NCBI RefSeq assembly: GCF_030013595.1
Contig: NZ_CP122768.1
Direction: 5' to 3' (one strand)
Length of the DNA stretch: 64,000 nt
From: Escherichia coli
Lineage (GTDB): Bacteria > Pseudomonadota > Gammaproteobacteria > Enterobacterales > Enterobacteriaceae
Shown here: positions 1-59,283 of the stretch, in pieces
Position numbering within the stretch: the stretch's first letter is position 1
Layout of the letters: each line of letters begins with the position of its first letter
Program-made: the position numbers and the translations under genes
Notes under the pieces: generated by a model
Seen by the model: only the letters and a program-made list of their open reading frames with translations
Told to the model about the DNA's origin: nothing
Databases searched by the model: none

Positions 1-1062
<1,062 letters not shown>

Positions 1063-1066
1063 ACCT

Positions 1067-1366
1067 ATGGCGCTTACAAAAGCTGAAATGTCAGAATATC
1101 TGTTTGATAAGCTTGGGCTTAGCAAGCGGGATGCCAAAGAACTGGTTGAACTGTTTTTCGAAGAGATCCGTCGCGCTCTGGAAAACGGCGAACAGGTGAA
1201 ACTCTCTGGTTTTGGTAACTTCGATCTGCGTGATAAGAATCAACGCCCGGGACGTAACCCGAAAACGGGCGAGGATATTCCCATTACAGCACGGCGCGTG
1301 GTGACCTTCAGACCCGGGCAGAAGTTAAAAAGCCGGGTCGAAAACGCTTCGCCCAAAGACGAGTAA
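1067..1366 (+). CDS. ihfA: integration host factor alpha subunit
   Basis: 99-aa ORF with HU/IHF-family sequence (GFGNF...RNPKTGE); 4 bp after pheT stop. Confidence 0.95.
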
Positions 1367-1383
1367 TCTGATCTAACTAAAAA

Positions 1384-1405
1384 GGCCGCTTTGCGGCCTT
1401 TTTTC
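1384..1405 (+). terminator. rho-independent terminator after ihfA
   Basis: GC stem ggccgc-tttg-gcggcc followed by T-run. Confidence 0.7.
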
Positions 1406-1466
1406 TTTTCACTGTCGAAGAGTCACCGTAAAATCAACGCCATGACACTTCAGCAGAACGGATACC

Positions 1467-5335: not shown

Positions 5336-6811
<1,476 letters not shown>

Positions 6812-9506: not shown

Positions 9507-11885
9507 ATGTCCAACAATGGCTCGTCACCGCTGGTGCTTTGGTATAACCAACTCGGCATGAATGATGTAGACAGGGTTGGGGGCAAAAATGCCTCCCTGG
9601 GTGAAATGATTACTAACCTTTCCGGAATGGGTGTTTCCGTTCCGAATGGTTTCGCCACAACCGCCGACGCGTTTAACCAGTTTCTGGACCAAAGCGGCGT
9701 AAACCAGCGCATTTATGAACTGCTGGATAAAACGGATATTGACGATGTTACCCAGCTTGCGAAAGCGGGCGCGCAAATCCGCCAGTGGATTATCGACACT
9801 CCCTTCCAGCCTGAGCTGGAAAACGCCATCCGCGAAGCCTATGCACAGCTTTCCGCCGATGACGAAAACGCCTCGTTTGCGGTGCGTTCCTCCGCTACTG
9901 CAGAAGATATGCCGGACGCTTCTTTTGCCGGTCAGCAGGAAACTTTCCTCAACGTTCAGGGTTTTGACGCCGTTCTCGTGGCAGTGAAACATGTATTTGC
10001 TTCTCTGTTTAACGATCGCGCCATCTCTTATCGTGTGCACCAGGGTTACGATCACCGTGGCGTGGCGCTCTCCGCCGGTGTTCAGCGGATGGTGCGCTCC
10101 GACCTCGCATCTTCTGGCGTGATGTTCTCCATTGATACGGAATCCGGCTTTGACCAGGTGGTGTTTATTACTTCCGCATGGGGCCTTGGTGAAATGGTCG
10201 TGCAGGGCGCGGTTAACCCGGATGAGTTTTACGTGCATAAACCGACACTGTCGGCGAATCGCCCGGCTATCGTGCGCCGCACCATGGGGTCGAAAAAAAT
10301 CCGCATGGTCTACGCGCCGACCCAGGAGCACGGCAAGCAGGTTAAAATCGAAGACGTACCGCAGGAACAGCGTGACATCTTCTCGCTGACCAACGAAGAA
10401 GTGCAGGAACTGGCAAAACAGGCCGTACAAATTGAGAAACACTACGGTCGCCCAATGGATATTGAGTGGGCGAAAGATGGCCACACCGGCAAACTGTTCA
10501 TTGTGCAGGCGCGTCCGGAAACCGTGCGCTCACGCGGTCAGGTCATGGAGCGTTATACGCTGCATTCACAGGGTAAGATTATCGCCGAAGGCCGTGCTAT
10601 CGGTCATCGCATCGGCGCGGGTCCGGTGAAAGTCATCCATGACATCAGCGAAATGAACCGCATCGAACCTGGCGACGTGCTGGTTACTGACATGACCGAC
10701 CCGGACTGGGAACCGATCATGAAGAAGGCATCTGCCATCGTCACCAACCGTGGGGGGCGTACCTGTCACGCGGCGATCATCGCTCGTGAACTCGGCATTC
10801 CGGCGGTAGTGGGCTGTGGTGATGCAACAGAACGGATGAAAGACGGTGAGAACGTCACTGTTTCTTGTGCCGAAGGTGATACCGGTTACGTCTATGCGGA
10901 GTTGCTGGAATTTAGCGTGAAAAGCTCCAGCGTGGAAACCATGCCGGATCTGCCGCTGAAAGTGATGATGAACGTCGGTAATCCGGACCGTGCTTTCGAC
11001 TTCGCCTGCCTGCCGAACGAAGGCGTCGGCCTTGCGCGTCTGGAATTTATCATCAACCGTATGATTGGCGTCCACCCACGCGCACTGCTTGAGTTTGACG
11101 ATCAGGAACCGCAGTTGCAAAACGAAATCCGCGAGATGATGAAAGGTTTTGATTCTCCGCGTGAATTTTACGTTGGGCGTTTGACTGAAGGGATCGCGAC
11201 GCTGGGTGCCGCGTTTTATCCGAAGCGCGTCATTGTCCGTCTCTCTGATTTTAAATCGAACGAATATGCCAACCTGGTCGGTGGTGAGCGTTACGAGCCA
11301 GATGAAGAGAACCCGATGCTCGGCTTCCGTGGCGCGGGCCGCTATGTTTCCGACAGCTTCCGCGACTGCTTCGCGCTGGAGTGTGAAGCAGTGAAACGTG
11401 TGCGCAACGATATGGGGCTGACCAACGTTGAGATCATGATCCCGTTCGTGCGTACCGTAGATCAGGCGAAAGCGGTGGTTGACGAACTGGCGCGTCAGGG
11501 GCTGAAACGTGGTGAGAACGGGCTGAAAATCATCATGATGTGTGAAATTCCGTCCAACGCCTTGCTGGCAGAGCAGTTCCTCGAATATTTCGACGGCTTC
11601 TCAATTGGCTCAAACGACATGACGCAGCTGGCGCTCGGTCTGGATCGTGACTCCGGCGTGGTGTCTGAACTGTTCGATGAGCGCAACGATGCGGTGAAAG
11701 CACTGCTGTCGATGGCGATTCGTGCCGCGAAGAAACAGGGCAAATATGTCGGGATTTGCGGTCAGGGTCCATCCGACCACGAAGACTTTGCTGCATGGTT
11801 GATGGAAGAGGGGATCGATAGCCTGTCTCTGAACCCGGACACCGTGGTGCAAACCTGGTTAAGCCTGGCTGAACTGAAGAAATAA
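9507..11885 (+). CDS. ppsA: phosphoenolpyruvate synthase
   Basis: 792-aa ORF recognised as PpsA (phosphohistidine region [13 protein letters not shown]). Confidence 0.95.
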
Positions 11886-24270: not shown

Positions 24271-25485
24271 TTACCCACCCGGAGCGACATTTTCCTTTAG
24301 CGAGTGATGCCGCGTTTCTTTGCGGCTGCGTAAGCCGATAAACAGTGCCAGTAAAAAGCCGATGGCAGCGATGGCGGTATCGAACCACATAATATCGGCA
24401 ATACTTCTTTGGGACAGATGAGCCGTAATCAACGGAATGGTAAATGTTGCAATACTGCCCGCACTGTAATAGATCCCTGTAGCTTTACCTTTAGCATAGG
24501 GGAAACGTTCAGCCATTAACGTCAGGCCAATTTGCACAACACCTCCAGCAGAGGTAAAACCAATGACAAAAGCAAATATTATCACCACATAAAATGTGGG
24601 ATGCAGACAGACGGTAAACAGAGCAATAAATGAGATAAAGGTGTACAGCATCAGTAATGTTGTTGGGCGAACGGTATTACGAATGAGTGGAGCGGTAATA
24701 AATACACAAAGCAGCGAACCCACGGTGTAGATACTAAGTAGTTTGATCGACATAGTGTATGACATGCCTGCAACAAATTGTCCGTACTGTGCCAGCCACT
24801 GGCTAACCAGATAAAACGTTGCCATTGAGATATAGCCATATAAGGTATAACTGGCTAAATCGATAATTGAACAGCGATGTTCCGTAGAGCTGGTGGTTTT
24901 CTTTATGACAGGTAAGCGACGACCCGGATGGGGTGGGAACGTACAACGGCATAAAAACAGAGCGTTAATAAACATAATGCCTGCGGCAATCATAAAGGAC
25001 CAACCGAACCACAGTTCAGCCCACACTAACAGGATGATGATTAGCGGTAATAAAAATTGTCCGCTGGAAACAAATGCTTTAATTAAAATATTGGCTGTCC
25101 CCGGTGAGCGTGGAAAAGCTTCCATCAAACTGGGATAGGTGCCTGCATCGAGAAAACTGTTTGCCATTCCCGCCAGAAAGCCAAAAACATAAGCGATAAT
25201 GATGTTATTGGTGTGCAGGATGCCAAAAAAGAAGGCCATATAGCAGCACATCCCGAGCATGATAAAAGGGCGGCGACCAAAGCGATCGGATAATAATCCT
25301 GCAAAAAGCAAGACACTTAATCGACCAATGCCCAGTGATGAGATAACTATCGAGACGCCCGCGGCATTAGTCTGCCAAAGCGTCTCCAGCGAGGCCATAT
25401 TCAGGCTCATCAAAATGACGCCCATACCATGCACCAGGTAATTAAAATACAACCCCAGTGCGGTAGGGTAATAGGGATTTTTCAT
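24271..25485 (-). CDS. ydiM: MFS transporter
   Basis: 404-aa 12-TM ORF with MFS motif DRFGRR. Confidence 0.85.
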   Translation of the reverse strand: MKNPYYPTALGLYFNYLVHGMGVILMSLNMASLETLWQTNAAGVSIVISSLGIGRLSVLLFAGLLSDRFGRRPFIMLGMCCYMAFFFGILHTNNIIIAYVFGFLAGMANSFLDAGTYPSLMEAFPRSPGTANILIKAFVSSGQFLLPLIIILLVWAELWFGWSFMIAAGIMFINALFLCRCTFPPHPGRRLPVIKKTTSSTEHRCSIIDLASYTLYGYISMATFYLVSQWLAQYGQFVAGMSYTMSIKLLSIYTVGSLLCVFITAPLIRNTVRPTTLLMLYTFISFIALFTVCLHPTFYVVIIFAFVIGFTSAGGVVQIGLTLMAERFPYAKGKATGIYYSAGSIATFTIPLITAHLSQRSIADIMWFDTAIAAIGFLLALFIGLRSRKETRHHSLKENVAPGG

Positions 25486-25584
25486 AGGTTCTACTTAGCA
25501 AAGGTGCTTTAAAAAGTGTAGCGATGTTGTGTCAGTATCCGTTCATTATTGTTGTAACAACGACAATTCCTTTCTGTGGAGAAA

Positions 25585-25941
25585 TTAACAAAGCCGCTCC
25601 AGATCGTGTGCATATAATTCAGCGGCTACCGATTGATAGATCTTCCAGTCAATAAAATTGCCATCAGGGTAGACTTGTTGAAACGCGGTTAAGTCGGGGA
25701 AAAAACGCATGGTGTTGTTGCCGATGCGGTTATTTATTTTCTCTATGATGGCATGAAGATGTTTTTTTCTTTGCTGACGCATAGCCAACAGTTGCTCGAC
25801 TACACGATCAGGAATGGCGTATTTGCCATTTTCCCACTGACGCCAGCTTTCACTGTCACCGGTCTGGGCAATCCAGGTCGCGCATTCATCAATAGTCATG
25901 GCAAAAATATGGCGAAGTGCCTGGAGTTCATAAGCGTTCAT
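25585..25941 (-). CDS. ydiL: small uncharacterised protein
   Basis: 118-aa ORF from MNAYELQALRH (track ORF is 9 codons longer). Confidence 0.75.
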   Translation of the reverse strand: MNAYELQALRHIFAMTIDECATWIAQTGDSESWRQWENGKYAIPDRVVEQLLAMRQQRKKHLHAIIEKINNRIGNNTMRFFPDLTAFQQVYPDGNFIDWKIYQSVAAELYAHDLERLC

Positions 25942-26079
25942 CGTGTAATGGCTGCATGAAATAAACAATAAAATATAAATAACATTATCAGCCTGCTGAC
26001 GGCTTGAAGAGAGTCACAGTATCTTGTGCAACATTATTGGAAAGCGTGAGGGGCGAGGTAGCGAAGCGGAAAAATGTTA

Positions 26080-26184
26080 AAAAAAAGCCCATCGTGGGAG
26101 ATGGGCAAAGACTACACACAGCAATTCGTTGTTTCACTCAGGGGATTTCCATGCTTATAAATCAATATGTTGATTTATAACCGT
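26080..26184 (-). ncRNA. rprA: small regulatory RNA RprA
   Basis: Minus-strand sequence matches RprA as I remember it (ACGGTTATAAATCAACATATTGATTTATAAGCATGG...CCCATCTCCCACGATGGGCTTTTTTT), ending in a terminator hairpin and U-run. Confidence 0.85.
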
Positions 26185-26369
26185 GAGCTAATAGTAGGCA
26201 TACGGACTTTTTGCGTCGATCAGATTCGTCTCATTAGTTTAAAAACTGTAAAGAATTTGCGACAGGTACTACCAGCTGAATGGCGGTAAGCAGGAAAATA
26301 TGGGGAAGAGCAAGCAAATATCAATTAGCAGGGGTTAACAATCAGGCGGCAGAGCCGCCTGATGAGAAA

Positions 26370-27482
26370 TTACTTATTCGATTTCTCGATTTCGCCAAGT
26401 TCTTCGAGAATTTCTTCCGGTTGGTCCGTCGGCGGTGGGACTTCTTCCACCCACGCGGCAAAAAGACGCCAGGAAACGGCTAACAGAACCGGACCAATAA
26501 ACAGGCCGATCATCCCGAAAGCAATCAAACCACCAATAACGCCAGAGAGGATCAGGATCAGCGGTAAATCGGCACCCATGCGAATTAACATTGGGCGGAT
26601 GACGTTATCCAGCGTGCCAACCACACCGCTCCACACTAACAATACCGTTCCCCAGGTGGTATCGCCAGTCCAGTAGAGCCAGATAATCGCCGGAATCAGT
26701 ACCGGCAACGGTCCAAGCTGGACAAGGCAGGAGAGGATCATCAACACCGTTAGCAAAGTTGCATAAGGTACGCCGGATACGGCGAGGCCGATACCGCCAA
26801 GCACTGCCTGTACTAACGCCGTCACCACCACACCCAGCGCCACCGCGCGGATAGCCTGTGCCGCCAGCAGCACGGCGGCATCACCGCGAACGCCTGCCAG
26901 ACGGGTTGCAAAATGGCGAATGCCTTGTGCCACCTGTTCACCGCGCCAGTACAGCAGGGCACTGAAGAGAAGCATCAGCGCACAATGCACCATAAAGCGC
27001 CCGATATGCGCCGCCTGCCCAACGAACCAGGTGGTGGTGGTGCCAATATAAGGACGGACTTTCGCCATGATCGCCGTACCCCCCATATCCAGCAAGTTGT
27101 GCCAGCCTGCATATAGCTTCGCGCCAATCACCGGAATGGTATTAAGCCACGCCAGATCGGGTAATGTCATGTCACCGCTGGAAATGGCTTTAATTAGCGG
27201 ACCGCTGCCGTCGACGATACTGTTAACCAGCAAGGCAATAGGGATGATAAACACCATCACTAATAACAGCGTCATCACCAGAACGGCGAGAGAGCGGCGA
27301 CCAAACATGATCTTTTGCAAACGTAACAATACCGGCCAGGTGGCGATAACCACCGTACCAGCCCATGCAAAGCCGAGAATAAAGGGTTGTACAATCCACA
27401 GACATGCCACAATCATGATGGCTAAAAAGAGCACCGAAAGCAGAATTTGTGCGACATCCCTGGGCTGACGAACATTTACCAT
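26370..27482 (-). CDS. ydiK: AI-2E/PerM-family inner-membrane transporter
   Basis: 370-aa polytopic ORF recognised as YdiK. Confidence 0.85.
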   Translation of the reverse strand: MVNVRQPRDVAQILLSVLFLAIMIVACLWIVQPFILGFAWAGTVVIATWPVLLRLQKIMFGRRSLAVLVMTLLLVMVFIIPIALLVNSIVDGSGPLIKAISSGDMTLPDLAWLNTIPVIGAKLYAGWHNLLDMGGTAIMAKVRPYIGTTTTWFVGQAAHIGRFMVHCALMLLFSALLYWRGEQVAQGIRHFATRLAGVRGDAAVLLAAQAIRAVALGVVVTALVQAVLGGIGLAVSGVPYATLLTVLMILSCLVQLGPLPVLIPAIIWLYWTGDTTWGTVLLVWSGVVGTLDNVIRPMLIRMGADLPLILILSGVIGGLIAFGMIGLFIGPVLLAVSWRLFAAWVEEVPPPTDQPEEILEELGEIEKSNK

Positions 27483-30927: not shown

Positions 30928-31334
30928 TATGGAAACGAAAAATCACCCTGGAAGCACTGAATGCCATGGGTGAAGGAAACATGGTGGGGTTACTGGATAT
31001 TCGCTTTGAACATATTGGTGATGACACCCTTGAAGCGACAATGCCAGTAGACTCGCGAACAAAGCAGCCTTTCGGGTTGCTGCATGGAGGGGCATCCGTG
31101 GTACTGGCCGAAAGTATCGGTTCCGTTGCCGGTTATTTATGTACCGAAGGTGAGCAAAAGGTGGTTGGCCTGGAAATCAATGCTAACCACGTCCGCTCGG
31201 CACGAGAAGGGCGGGTACGCGGCGTATGCAAACCGTTGCATCTCGGTTCGCGTCACCAGGTCTGGCAGATTGAAATCTTCGATGAGAAAGGGCGTTTGTA
31301 CTGTTCGTCACGATTGACGACCGCGATTTTGTGA
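30924..31334 (+). CDS. menI: 1,4-dihydroxy-2-naphthoyl-CoA thioesterase (hotdog fold)
   Basis: 136-aa ORF recognised as MenI/YdiI. Confidence 0.9.
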   Translation: MIWKRKITLEALNAMGEGNMVGLLDIRFEHIGDDTLEATMPVDSRTKQPFGLLHGGASVVLAESIGSVAGYLCTEGEQKVVGLEINANHVRSAREGRVRGVCKPLHLGSRHQVWQIEIFDEKGRLYCSSRLTTAIL

Positions 31335-31622: not shown

Positions 31623-31821
31623 TCCTGACTTAATGCTGCAATTTCGCCAAATCGACCTGGATTAACCTCCGTCCAGGTTCGATAACCTTCTTAATACTGC
31701 TTATCTAACCGCCTGATATTGTTCAAAAATAATACTAATCGCAGTTTGTGTTAAAACGACGGCTTAGCTTTATGAGATTATTCTTATCGCCCCTTCAAGA
31801 GCTAAGCCACTGAGAGTGCCG

Positions 31822-31889
31822 GAGATAAGCGCCGGATGGGGTAGAAACCCTTAAGCCTGTGTCGCACAGACTTAAGGGTTTTCTTATTT
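31822..31889 (+). ncRNA. candidate small RNA ending in a strong intrinsic terminator (possibly RydB)
   Basis: Hairpin cccttaagcctgtg-tcg-cacagacttaaggg plus U-run at 31848-31889, about 225 bp after ydiH; K-12 has RydB between ydiH and sufA; 5' end not determinable here. Confidence 0.35.
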
Positions 31890-49566: not shown

Positions 49567-49872
49567 TCAGGCGAGTTTTGCCTGATTGATTTGACTAAGT
49601 GGCTCATTGACATCGAAAACTTTGGCGACAACTTCCTCAACGCCGAGATTTTTCAGTCGGGCAGTATGTTTTTCCAGATAGGCAAGGGCGCTTTTTTCAT
49701 CAGTAAAAAGGTAGATCCCACCGGCTTCGTGGTTCTTTTCACTTTCTGTCCATACCTTCCACAGAAAACCAGGTTCCTGATTAATCGACTCAGCAAGCGG
49801 TTTAAGCTGCTCAGCCATTGCGTCGCCAAATGGGCCATTGAAAGAAAAATGAAGTTGTAACAAAGTTGCCAT
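49567..49872 (-). CDS. ydhR: small uncharacterised protein
   Basis: 101-aa ORF. Confidence 0.75.
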
Positions 49873-49980
49873 AGCGATTCTCCTTCTGATAACGCATACG
49901 AAGACAGTGTAAATCTTTTAACGTATTGGATACAGAGAAGAAACAGAGGGAAAAAAGGAGAAGACCAGATTAAGAAAATC

Positions 49981-50057
49981 TGGTGCGTCCGAGTGGACTC
50001 GAACCACCGACCCCCACCATGTCAAGGTGGTGCTCTAACCAACTGAGCTACGGACGC
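49981..50057 (-). tRNA. valW: tRNA-Val (anticodon GAC)
   Basis: Reverse complement reads GCGTCCGTAGCTCAGTTGGTTAGAGCACCACCTTGACATGGTGGGGGTCGGTGGTTCGAGTCCACTCGGACGCACCA; valV/valW naming is by position and uncertain. Confidence 0.9.
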
Positions 50058-50061
50058 AGGA

Positions 50062-50138
50062 TGGTGCGTTCAATTGGACTCGAACCAACGACCCCCACCA
50101 TGTCAAGGTGGTGCTCTAACCAACTGAGCTATGAACGC
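50062..50138 (-). tRNA. valV: tRNA-Val (anticodon GAC)
   Basis: Reverse complement reads GCGTTCATAGCTCAGTTGGTTAGAGCACCACCTTGACATGGTGGGGGTCGTTGGTTCGAGTCCAATTGAACGCACCA; 4-nt spacer from the other copy. Confidence 0.9.
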
Positions 50139-58730: not shown

Positions 58731-58774
58731 TCCATTTCACTCCAGACCCTAACTTCAGCTCCTGCAAAATCGCA

Positions 58775-58792
58775 AGGTAAACGTTTGCCTTT
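58775..58792 (-). promoter_or_regulatory. PurR-box-like operator in the purR leader
   Basis: aaggtAAACGTTTGCctt, palindromic match to PurR consensus. Confidence 0.55.
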
Positions 58793-59028
58793 ACACACCT
58801 TACGCACAACAAAAGTGTTGCGGTACGCCGGAAAAACGACACGGAGCGTCAGGAAGGGGTCAATGGCCAGTACGCAAATAGTGTAAGCGTGGAATTTTGG
58901 CCGATCTTGACGAAAAGGGGAAGTGGTAAAAACACTTATCATTATAAATGACGGGAGATTTTTTCATCACAGTGTGTAAAAATGCGTAATATCACTTTTT
59001 GTGTGGTAATAAAAAAGGAGAAAACTTG

Positions 59029-59118
59029 ATGAGCACCGACCTTAAATTTTCACTGGTAACAACGATTATCGTCCTCGGTTTGATCGTGGCCGTGGGTTTG
59101 ACTGCCGCGCTGCACTGA
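59029..59118 (+). CDS. ynhF: small hydrophobic membrane protein (29 aa)
   Basis: ATG preceded by aggag 8 nt upstream; encodes MSTDLKFSLVTTIIVLGLIVAVGLTAALH, a single TM helix; below the ORF-track length cutoff. Confidence 0.65.
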   Translation: MSTDLKFSLVTTIIVLGLIVAVGLTAALH

Positions 59119-59283
59119 TTTCCTCTCGAGGGAGCGCGTTCTCCCTCGCATCTCCTTCCTGTTTGTTAGCAAAATGGCAAAAGTGTTTTCTCTTTTTGTT
59201 ATTTTCATTTTTTTGTGATTGCTGTCATGCTTTCGCCACTTTAATGAATATCGCGTAATGACGCAAAGAGGTGGAGATAAGGC

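Follow-up and report, generated by a model that had tools for sequence, protein, structure and literature searches.

What fills the gap between ydiK and ydiL in Escherichia coli, and does it act on its own account or as an appendage of its neighbours? We addressed this question in a 64,000-nucleotide stretch of contig NZ_CP122768.1 (RefSeq assembly GCF_030013595.1), referred to here as the window. An earlier note on this DNA had taken the minus-strand sequence at this place for the small RNA RprA, lying between ydiL and ydiK and closed by a terminal hairpin and U-tail, and had proposed alignment to the Rfam RprA model and comparison with the K-12 annotation as checks. Both comparisons bear the identification out, and a textbook small RNA accounts for the ORF-free gap that separates ydiK from ydiL. 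We consider it almost certain that the minus strand at 26184..26079 encodes RprA, a small RNA that depends on Hfq, acts in trans by base pairing, is induced via Rcs and frees the ribosome-binding site (RBS) of rpoS. Identity, family membership, synteny, promoter box, covarying structure and complementarity to rpoS were established in the present analysis, and for expression, Hfq dependence, target regulation and processing we draw on the K-12 literature. Nothing was found that contradicts the RprA explanation.

The rprA gene and its boundaries

The sequence read directly from 26184 to 26079 on the minus strand is ACGGTTATAAATCAACATATTGATTTATAAGCATGGAAATCCCCTGAGTGAAACAACGAATTGCTGTGTGTAGTCTTTGCCCATCTCCCACGATGGGCTTTTTTTT. 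Rfam RF00034 (RprA) aligns to it with 118.5 bits, the gathering score being 70 (E = 1.6e-16), covering model positions 1-108 of 108 without truncation, and all 106/106 bases are identical to K-12 MG1655 b4431, annotated as 'small regulatory RNA RprA', whose 106 nt are equivalent to 26184..26079. An E value of this size over the full model, together with 100% identity to K-12, excludes a chance match. The setting ydiK-rprA-ydiL is likewise that of K-12, with both neighbours on the minus strand at the coordinates given in the table below. The identity to K-12 extends about 130 nt upstream, which includes the promoter, and about 35 nt downstream of rprA; the closest mismatches are two substitutions some 145-150 nt upstream and one some 35 nt downstream, none of them inside the gene. 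The feature is thus an intact, canonical rprA, without any difference from the K-12 reference and already known. The K-12 RprA (b4431, RF00034) and the copy in the window agree in the 106-nt sequence, the promoter, the RcsB box, the neighbours ydiK and ydiL, the terminator and the complementarity to the rpoS leader.

The span first proposed for the RNA, 26080-26184 (105 nt), places the locus correctly and is one base off the K-12 annotation (106 nt) and three off the Rfam and PGAP call (108 nt, 26184..26077). A triphosphorylated 5' end that depends on RcsB and matches 26184 has already been reported in K-12. In RefSeq records 100% identical to the window PGAP annotates rprA at the position equivalent to 26184..26077, and RefSeq entries for thousands of E. 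coli genomes likewise have rprA with ydiK and ydiL on its two sides. Of 5426 complete E. coli genomes, 5424 were matched by a query of 1 kb with the site at its centre, and ydiK, rprA and ydiL are the features annotated there; a 108-nt query for rprA was found in 5423. Identity of at least 99% was reached in 5421 records for the 108-nt query and in only 875 E. coli records for the surrounding 1 kb, indicating that the RNA is conserved above its flanks.

Coordinates of the features described (all positions are those of the window, except for the last four rows, where the L number denotes an extract from a phage or genome)
Feature	Position	Strand	Basis or detail
rprA gene, primary transcript of 106 nt, +1 = A at 26184	26079..26184	-	Rfam RF00034, K-12 b4431 identity, PGAP annotation
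RcsB box TGAGACGAATCTGA (-49..-36)	26220..26233	-	fits TN(G/A)GAN4TC(T/C)NA
-10 hexamer TACTAT (-12..-7), weak -35-like TCGACG 17 nt upstream	26191..26196	-	read from sequence
5' stem-loop, nt 5-30, 11 bp UUAUAAAUCAA/UUGAUUUAUAA	26155..26180	-	MFE and centroid folds
Small second stem-loop, nt 32-46	26139..26153	-	Rfam consensus structure
rpoS-leader-complementary region, nt 33-62, blocks AUGGA, UCCCCU and AACGAAUU	26123..26152	-	duplex prediction
23-nt core AAUUGCUGUGUGUAGUCUUUGCC	26104..26126	-	part of the Rfam consensus in upper case, highly conserved
Processed RprA60-106, last 47 nt, conserved 3' module	26079..26125	-	published cut
Terminator hairpin GCCCATCTCCCACGATGGGC	26087..26106	-	terminator scan; 7 bp, 5 G-C, 6-nt loop
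U8 tail	26079..26086	-	direct sequence read
10-bp hairpin after the ydiK stop	26341..26363	-	direct read
ydiK, AI-2E family transporter	26370..27482	-	Pfam PF01594, E = 4e-64; annotated
ydiL, Aca2/YdiL-like	25585..25941	-	Pfam PF08965, E = 1.7e-60; annotated
67-aa ORF, not part of rprA, probably spurious	26280..26483	+	ORF list
Phage LLS core element	L124:2501-2545	+	exact core and terminator
vB_EcoM-606R2 core element	L125:2501-2546	+	exact core and terminator
Erwinia phage Ea9-2 core element	L126:2501-2544	+	exact core and terminator
Further core element	L096:~6590-6640	-	exact core and terminator

Other Rfam families also matched in the window. Above the gathering score were rydB (31789-31849, plus strand, 81.6 bits), STnc550 (58731-59121, plus strand, 396 bits) and STnc540 (1308-1466, plus strand, 68.3 bits, covering 159 nt of a 202-nt model). 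HPnc0260, a Helicobacter antisense-RNA family, matched 49856-50019 on the plus strand with 112 bits, opposite the tandem tRNA-Val(GAC) genes at 49981-50057 (-) and 50062-50138 (-); the best-aligned part is the complement of a tRNA, so this match is probably an artefact of the family seed and not a real homologue.

Promoter, transcript structure and neighbouring genes

The RcsB box of the window, TGAGACGAATCTGA, is also the 14-mer found in the PrprA DNA of an RcsB co-crystal structure (PMC7913699). A box was found at the expected distance in 116 of the 117 homologous loci listed, compared to a background of 0.0015 per equivalent stretch, and GCCTACTATTAG is conserved among the Enterobacteriaceae extracts. 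A generic sigma-70 scan left the rprA promoter uncalled (8/12, threshold 9/12), which is expected of an activator-dependent promoter, and dependence on RcsB and the Rcs phosphorelay has been published for the K-12 promoter, to which that of the window is identical (PMC6298664, PMC7913699). In the mechanism that we propose, envelope stress would activate the Rcs phosphorelay, an RcsB dimer would bind the box at -49 to -36, and the otherwise weak promoter would be switched on. The transcript would then start at A 26184 and end at the hairpin and U8 terminator, giving an RNA of 105-106 nt.

The presence of this promoter bears on whether rprA is an independent gene or the stretch is just the end of the ydiK mRNA, its 3' untranslated region with the terminator. 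The arrangement of the genes would allow for such a tail, as rprA begins 186 nt beyond ydiK in the same direction and ydiK is its invariant neighbour on the upstream side. Among the 120 homologous loci listed, 109 have ydiK upstream in the same orientation; of the 11 others, nine have less than 400 nt of DNA on that side, too little to tell, and two are second copies associated with phages. The stop codon of ydiK (26372..26370) is followed by a 10-bp hairpin, ATCAGGCGGC-TCT-GCCGCCTGAT, with its stem starting at 26363, and since this hairpin has no T-run, and was not called by the terminator scan, some read-through is conceivable. An origin as a ydiK tail is nevertheless very improbable, given that 116 of 117 loci conserve the RcsB box and the -10 element at a constant spacing from the 5' end, that transcription of rprA is strictly RcsB-dependent as published with a fusion of its own promoter (PMC6298664), and that K-12 annotates a discrete 106-nt ncRNA. 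We therefore keep to rprA as an independent gene, and the hairpin behind ydiK plausibly ends or stabilises the ydiK mRNA.

Folding of the whole RNA predicts an 11-bp stem-loop at the 5' end (nt 5-30), a mostly open centre and the terminator (nt 79-98), with z = -2.5 against shuffles. Published work describes three stem-loops in RprA, of which the 5' one is the largest and is a proposed RNase E duplex contact, as well as cleavage by RNase E (PMC6202311). We used an alignment of 118 Enterobacterales sequences, 112 of them distinct, to look for covariation, counting the pairs helix by helix. In the terminator helix (7 pairs) 99.5% of the cells are paired and changes on both sides, which compensate each other, occur at 3/7 pairs, while the long 5' stem, of which helix 1 with 8 of the 11 pairs was counted, is 81.4% paired and has both-side changes at 7/8 pairs. 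In four of five measures none of 500 shuffles reached the observed value and in the fifth only one of 500 did; sliding the partner positions gave 32-48% pairing compared to the 86% observed. The second stem-loop (nt 32-46) is only 73-77% paired in the homologues, where covariation supports it weakly. The 4-bp 5' helix drawn by Rfam (nt 2-5 with nt 19-22, in the region 26155-26183) was considered in place of the thermodynamic 11-bp stem and is the weaker of the two, with 50-66% paired compared to about 81% in the 112 distinct homologues. The 5' helix of the RF00034 consensus structure may need revision.

The pattern of conservation also speaks to whether the region might encode a small protein. 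Two open reading frames exist mechanically, one of 49 aa at 25988-26137 (-) that starts inside the RNA and one of 58 aa at 26004-26180 (+). We give this reading next to no credence, because neither frame has a Pfam match or an annotation, the minus-strand frame reads through the terminator hairpin and U-tail, and in the homologues the indels are not multiples of three and conservation tracks helices, not codons. When all four ORFs that overlap or flank the RNA were searched, no Pfam match was obtained in any of them. One of the nearby frames, at 26280-26483, had been dismissed as spurious in the earlier note, and this is reasonable: it is antisense to the last 114 nt of ydiK, at the 3' end of that gene, spans the hairpin behind the ydiK stop, and has neither a Pfam match nor a RefSeq annotation. 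A non-coding RNA remains the preferred reading of the stretch.

A highly conserved part of this RNA is a 23-nt core, AATTGCTGTGTGTAGTCTTTGCC, which occurs once in the window and is found exactly in at least 120 species-representative genomes of the Enterobacteriaceae, Erwiniaceae, Pectobacteriaceae, Yersiniaceae, Hafniaceae and Morganellaceae. As the loci were gathered by exact match to the core, its invariance in them is circular; what is informative is how many carriers there are, how diverse they are and in which contexts the core stands. In Pectobacterium sp. CFBP8739 (extract L103:~10835-10865, minus strand) a 14-nt sequence, GAGTTAGTAACGAA, stands twice in tandem just 5' of the RprA core, and this duplication lengthens the stretch that matches the target-pairing part of RprA.

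Towards the 3' end the RNA closes, as had been described from the sequence, with the hairpin GCCCATCTCCCACGATGGGC at 26106..26087 followed by T8, and this is the sole terminator-like site that the terminator scan found in 25700-26700. RNAs of about 105 nt and about 47 nt have been published for the identical sequence (PMC3465796, PMC9262595, PMC6202311), and processed RprA is given as the last 47 nt (PMC9262595) or as RprA60-105 (PMC3465796). On its own the 47-nt 3' module folds as a small hairpin plus the terminator, with z = -3.4. RNase E would trim RprA to a stable 47-nt 3' fragment, made up of core and terminator, that keeps part of the regulatory activity. RprA is known in the field as an Hfq-dependent small RNA. 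The sequence prerequisites related to Hfq are present, namely the U8 tail after the terminator and the A/U-rich UAGUCUUU ahead of it; for the repression of csgD by RprA, Hfq was reported not to be essential (PMC3465796).

A further question is whether the rprA terminator, besides the role of the RNA in trans, gates ydiL in cis. The ydiL gene starts 137 nt downstream in the same orientation as rprA, and a crude promoter scan found no sigma-70-like site on the minus strand between 26079 and 25941, which would fit such a role. We regard gating as unlikely all the same, as the terminator is strong (7 bp, 5 G-C, U8), ydiL is not downstream of rprA in 112 of the 120 loci listed, and no experiments in favour of gating were found. 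As most loci lack ydiL at this place, its gating is not a function of the family, and a regulator that acts in trans is the reading that we retain for rprA. The eight loci among the 120 listed in which ydiL does lie downstream belong to Escherichia, Citrobacter and Intestinirhabdus, and ydiL could be a lineage-specific insertion beside rprA. A second, partial core that might mark an old integration near ydiL was looked for in the window and none was found within 3 mismatches. In NZ_CM149870.1 (L001:2775-3755), where the ydiK-rprA-ydiL kilobase is 100% identical to the window, the gene for an IS5-like ISKpn26 transposase lies between ydiL and ydiM; the counterpart of that site in the window (25485-25585) is only about 100 nt long.

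Pairing with rpoS and other targets

Activation of rpoS by RprA through an anti-antisense mechanism has been described previously (PMC3465796, PMC3783183), and we examined whether the sequence in the window is compatible with it. The predicted duplex of RprA on the K-12 rpoS leader covers -134 to -85; within it nt 33-62 of RprA are complementary to -117 to -94, and AACGAAUU is the exact reverse complement of -117 to -110. The predicted fold of the K-12 rpoS leader itself pairs -124 to -94 with -18 to +11, a segment that holds the Shine-Dalgarno sequence and the AUG. RprA would thus pair, through about nt 33-62, with the upstream arm of the leader that sequesters the RBS, so that the site would be freed and translation of RpoS would rise. 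In its energy the RprA-rpoS duplex does not stand out from those formed by shuffled RprA (z = -1.3 with the full RNA and -0.9 with its central part), and complementarity to rpoS is therefore insufficient by itself to identify the target. These model-based results indicate that the prerequisites for pairing with rpoS are present, and the interaction is not proven by the computation.

The same RNA, using overlapping and more 3' regions, would also repress targets such as csgD, ydaM/dgcM, hdeD and narP. The published regions are nt 28-45 and 60-97 for csgD, nt 45-75 for ydaM, nt 30-70 for narP and a seed stem-loop from about nt 31 for hdeD (PMC3465796, PMC9262595, PMC5861431); the last of these papers covers the RprA targetome. 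Much like RprA, DsrA and ArcZ are Hfq-dependent small RNAs; they base-pair to the upstream arm of the hairpin in the rpoS leader and thereby release the RBS (PMC3783183). Unlike RprA, they have unrelated sequences, belong to separate Rfam families, are encoded at other loci and respond to different inputs. For DsrA the input is low temperature, for ArcZ it is ArcAB and oxygen, and for RprA it is Rcs.

The RprA core in prophages and phages

The 3' module is also found away from rprA. In the 5423 complete E. coli genomes with a match, the 47-nt processed-RprA sequence occurs at 6039 places, up to three per genome, which leaves about 615 copies beyond one rprA per genome; these surplus copies are presumably prophage-borne. 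In the E. coli collection three places with the RprA 3' module are on plasmids. A 95.7%-identical 3' module lies at 31069-31115 of NZ_JBRBPZ010000006.1, an 89-kb record of E. coli CH468, with no annotation beneath it.

Two of the genome matches to the core, in Phytobacter massiliensis and in a Citrobacter MAG, are phage-linked second copies. In P. massiliensis (NZ_HE578945.1) a full rprA follows ydiK (L049:~814-920, plus strand), and a copy of the 3' ~68 nt lies 8.07 kb further on (L050:1206-1280, plus strand). The second copy has no RcsB box, and an ORF for a lambda-type tail tape-measure protein lies between the two. Judged from this arrangement of sequences, the pair looks like an attL/attR duplication left by a prophage remnant that integrated into the 3' part of rprA. 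In the Citrobacter MAG the core stands within a prophage, joined to a different terminator, with a CI-like repressor gene just upstream and the integrase about 4 kb away.

An exact 22-nt RprA core was found in at least 120 IMG/VR viral contigs (L127-L246). In the phage elements the core, AUUGCUGUGUGUAGUCUUUGCC(C), which matches exactly over 22-27 nt, leads straight into a G+C-rich terminator hairpin and a U-run; among the 120 contigs listed this is so in 112, with a hairpin of at least 5 bp, and these 120 hold 39 hairpin sequences and 48 upstream contexts. The carriers include temperate phages, such as the Escherichia phages LLS, Eeyore, Flotzy and vB_EcoM-606R2, as well as lytic ones, namely N4-like Erwinia phages, for example Ea9-2 with the element after the thymidylate synthase gene, and jumbo Erwinia phages. 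In the temperate phages the usual place of the element is behind a cI-type repressor gene of the same strand and ahead of the early-left genes, with the integrase about 4.2 kb away. In phage LLS there is a promoter-like site, TTGACC-17-TAGATT, about 340 nt upstream of the element.

These elements share with processed RprA the same architecture of core, G+C-rich terminator and U-run. They differ from RprA in that their 5' halves are unrelated to it, ydiK is missing, just 9 of the 120 listed have a match resembling the RcsB box, and they fall below the Rfam threshold for RprA. RefSeq has no annotation at the prophage element, and an Rfam scan of twelve phage or prophage loci found no family at the element. 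We considered whether the phage cores are host rprA genes swept into provirus calls, and rejected this, as ydiK and ydiL are lacking in all 120 and CCCCTGAG occurs in just 3. That they are attP sites is unlikely for most of them, with the element about 4.2 kb from the integrase and beside the repressor gene, and with the core also present in lytic phages that have no lysogeny module. No description of a phage-borne RprA core was found in the searchable literature, nor was the core found there as a text string.

What the elements do can be read in two ways. They may simply be terminators, with a module in common with rprA. We also put forward, as a tentative idea about which we are doubtful, that the RprA 3' module (26125..26079 in the window) might be a regulatory 'word' copied by phages, whose elements could release short mimics of processed RprA and so exploit the RprA regulon of the host or compete with it. 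Only the host archetype is present in the window, and the idea of phage mimics concerns the related loci.

The presence of RprA at this locus adds nothing new by itself. The RNA connects envelope stress, sensed via Rcs, with RpoS, the general stress sigma factor, and with the control of biofilm, curli and acid resistance. The phage-borne core is the sole lead that we consider worth passing on: if the phage copies are expressed, they would represent a widespread borrowing by phages of the seed of a host stress small RNA.
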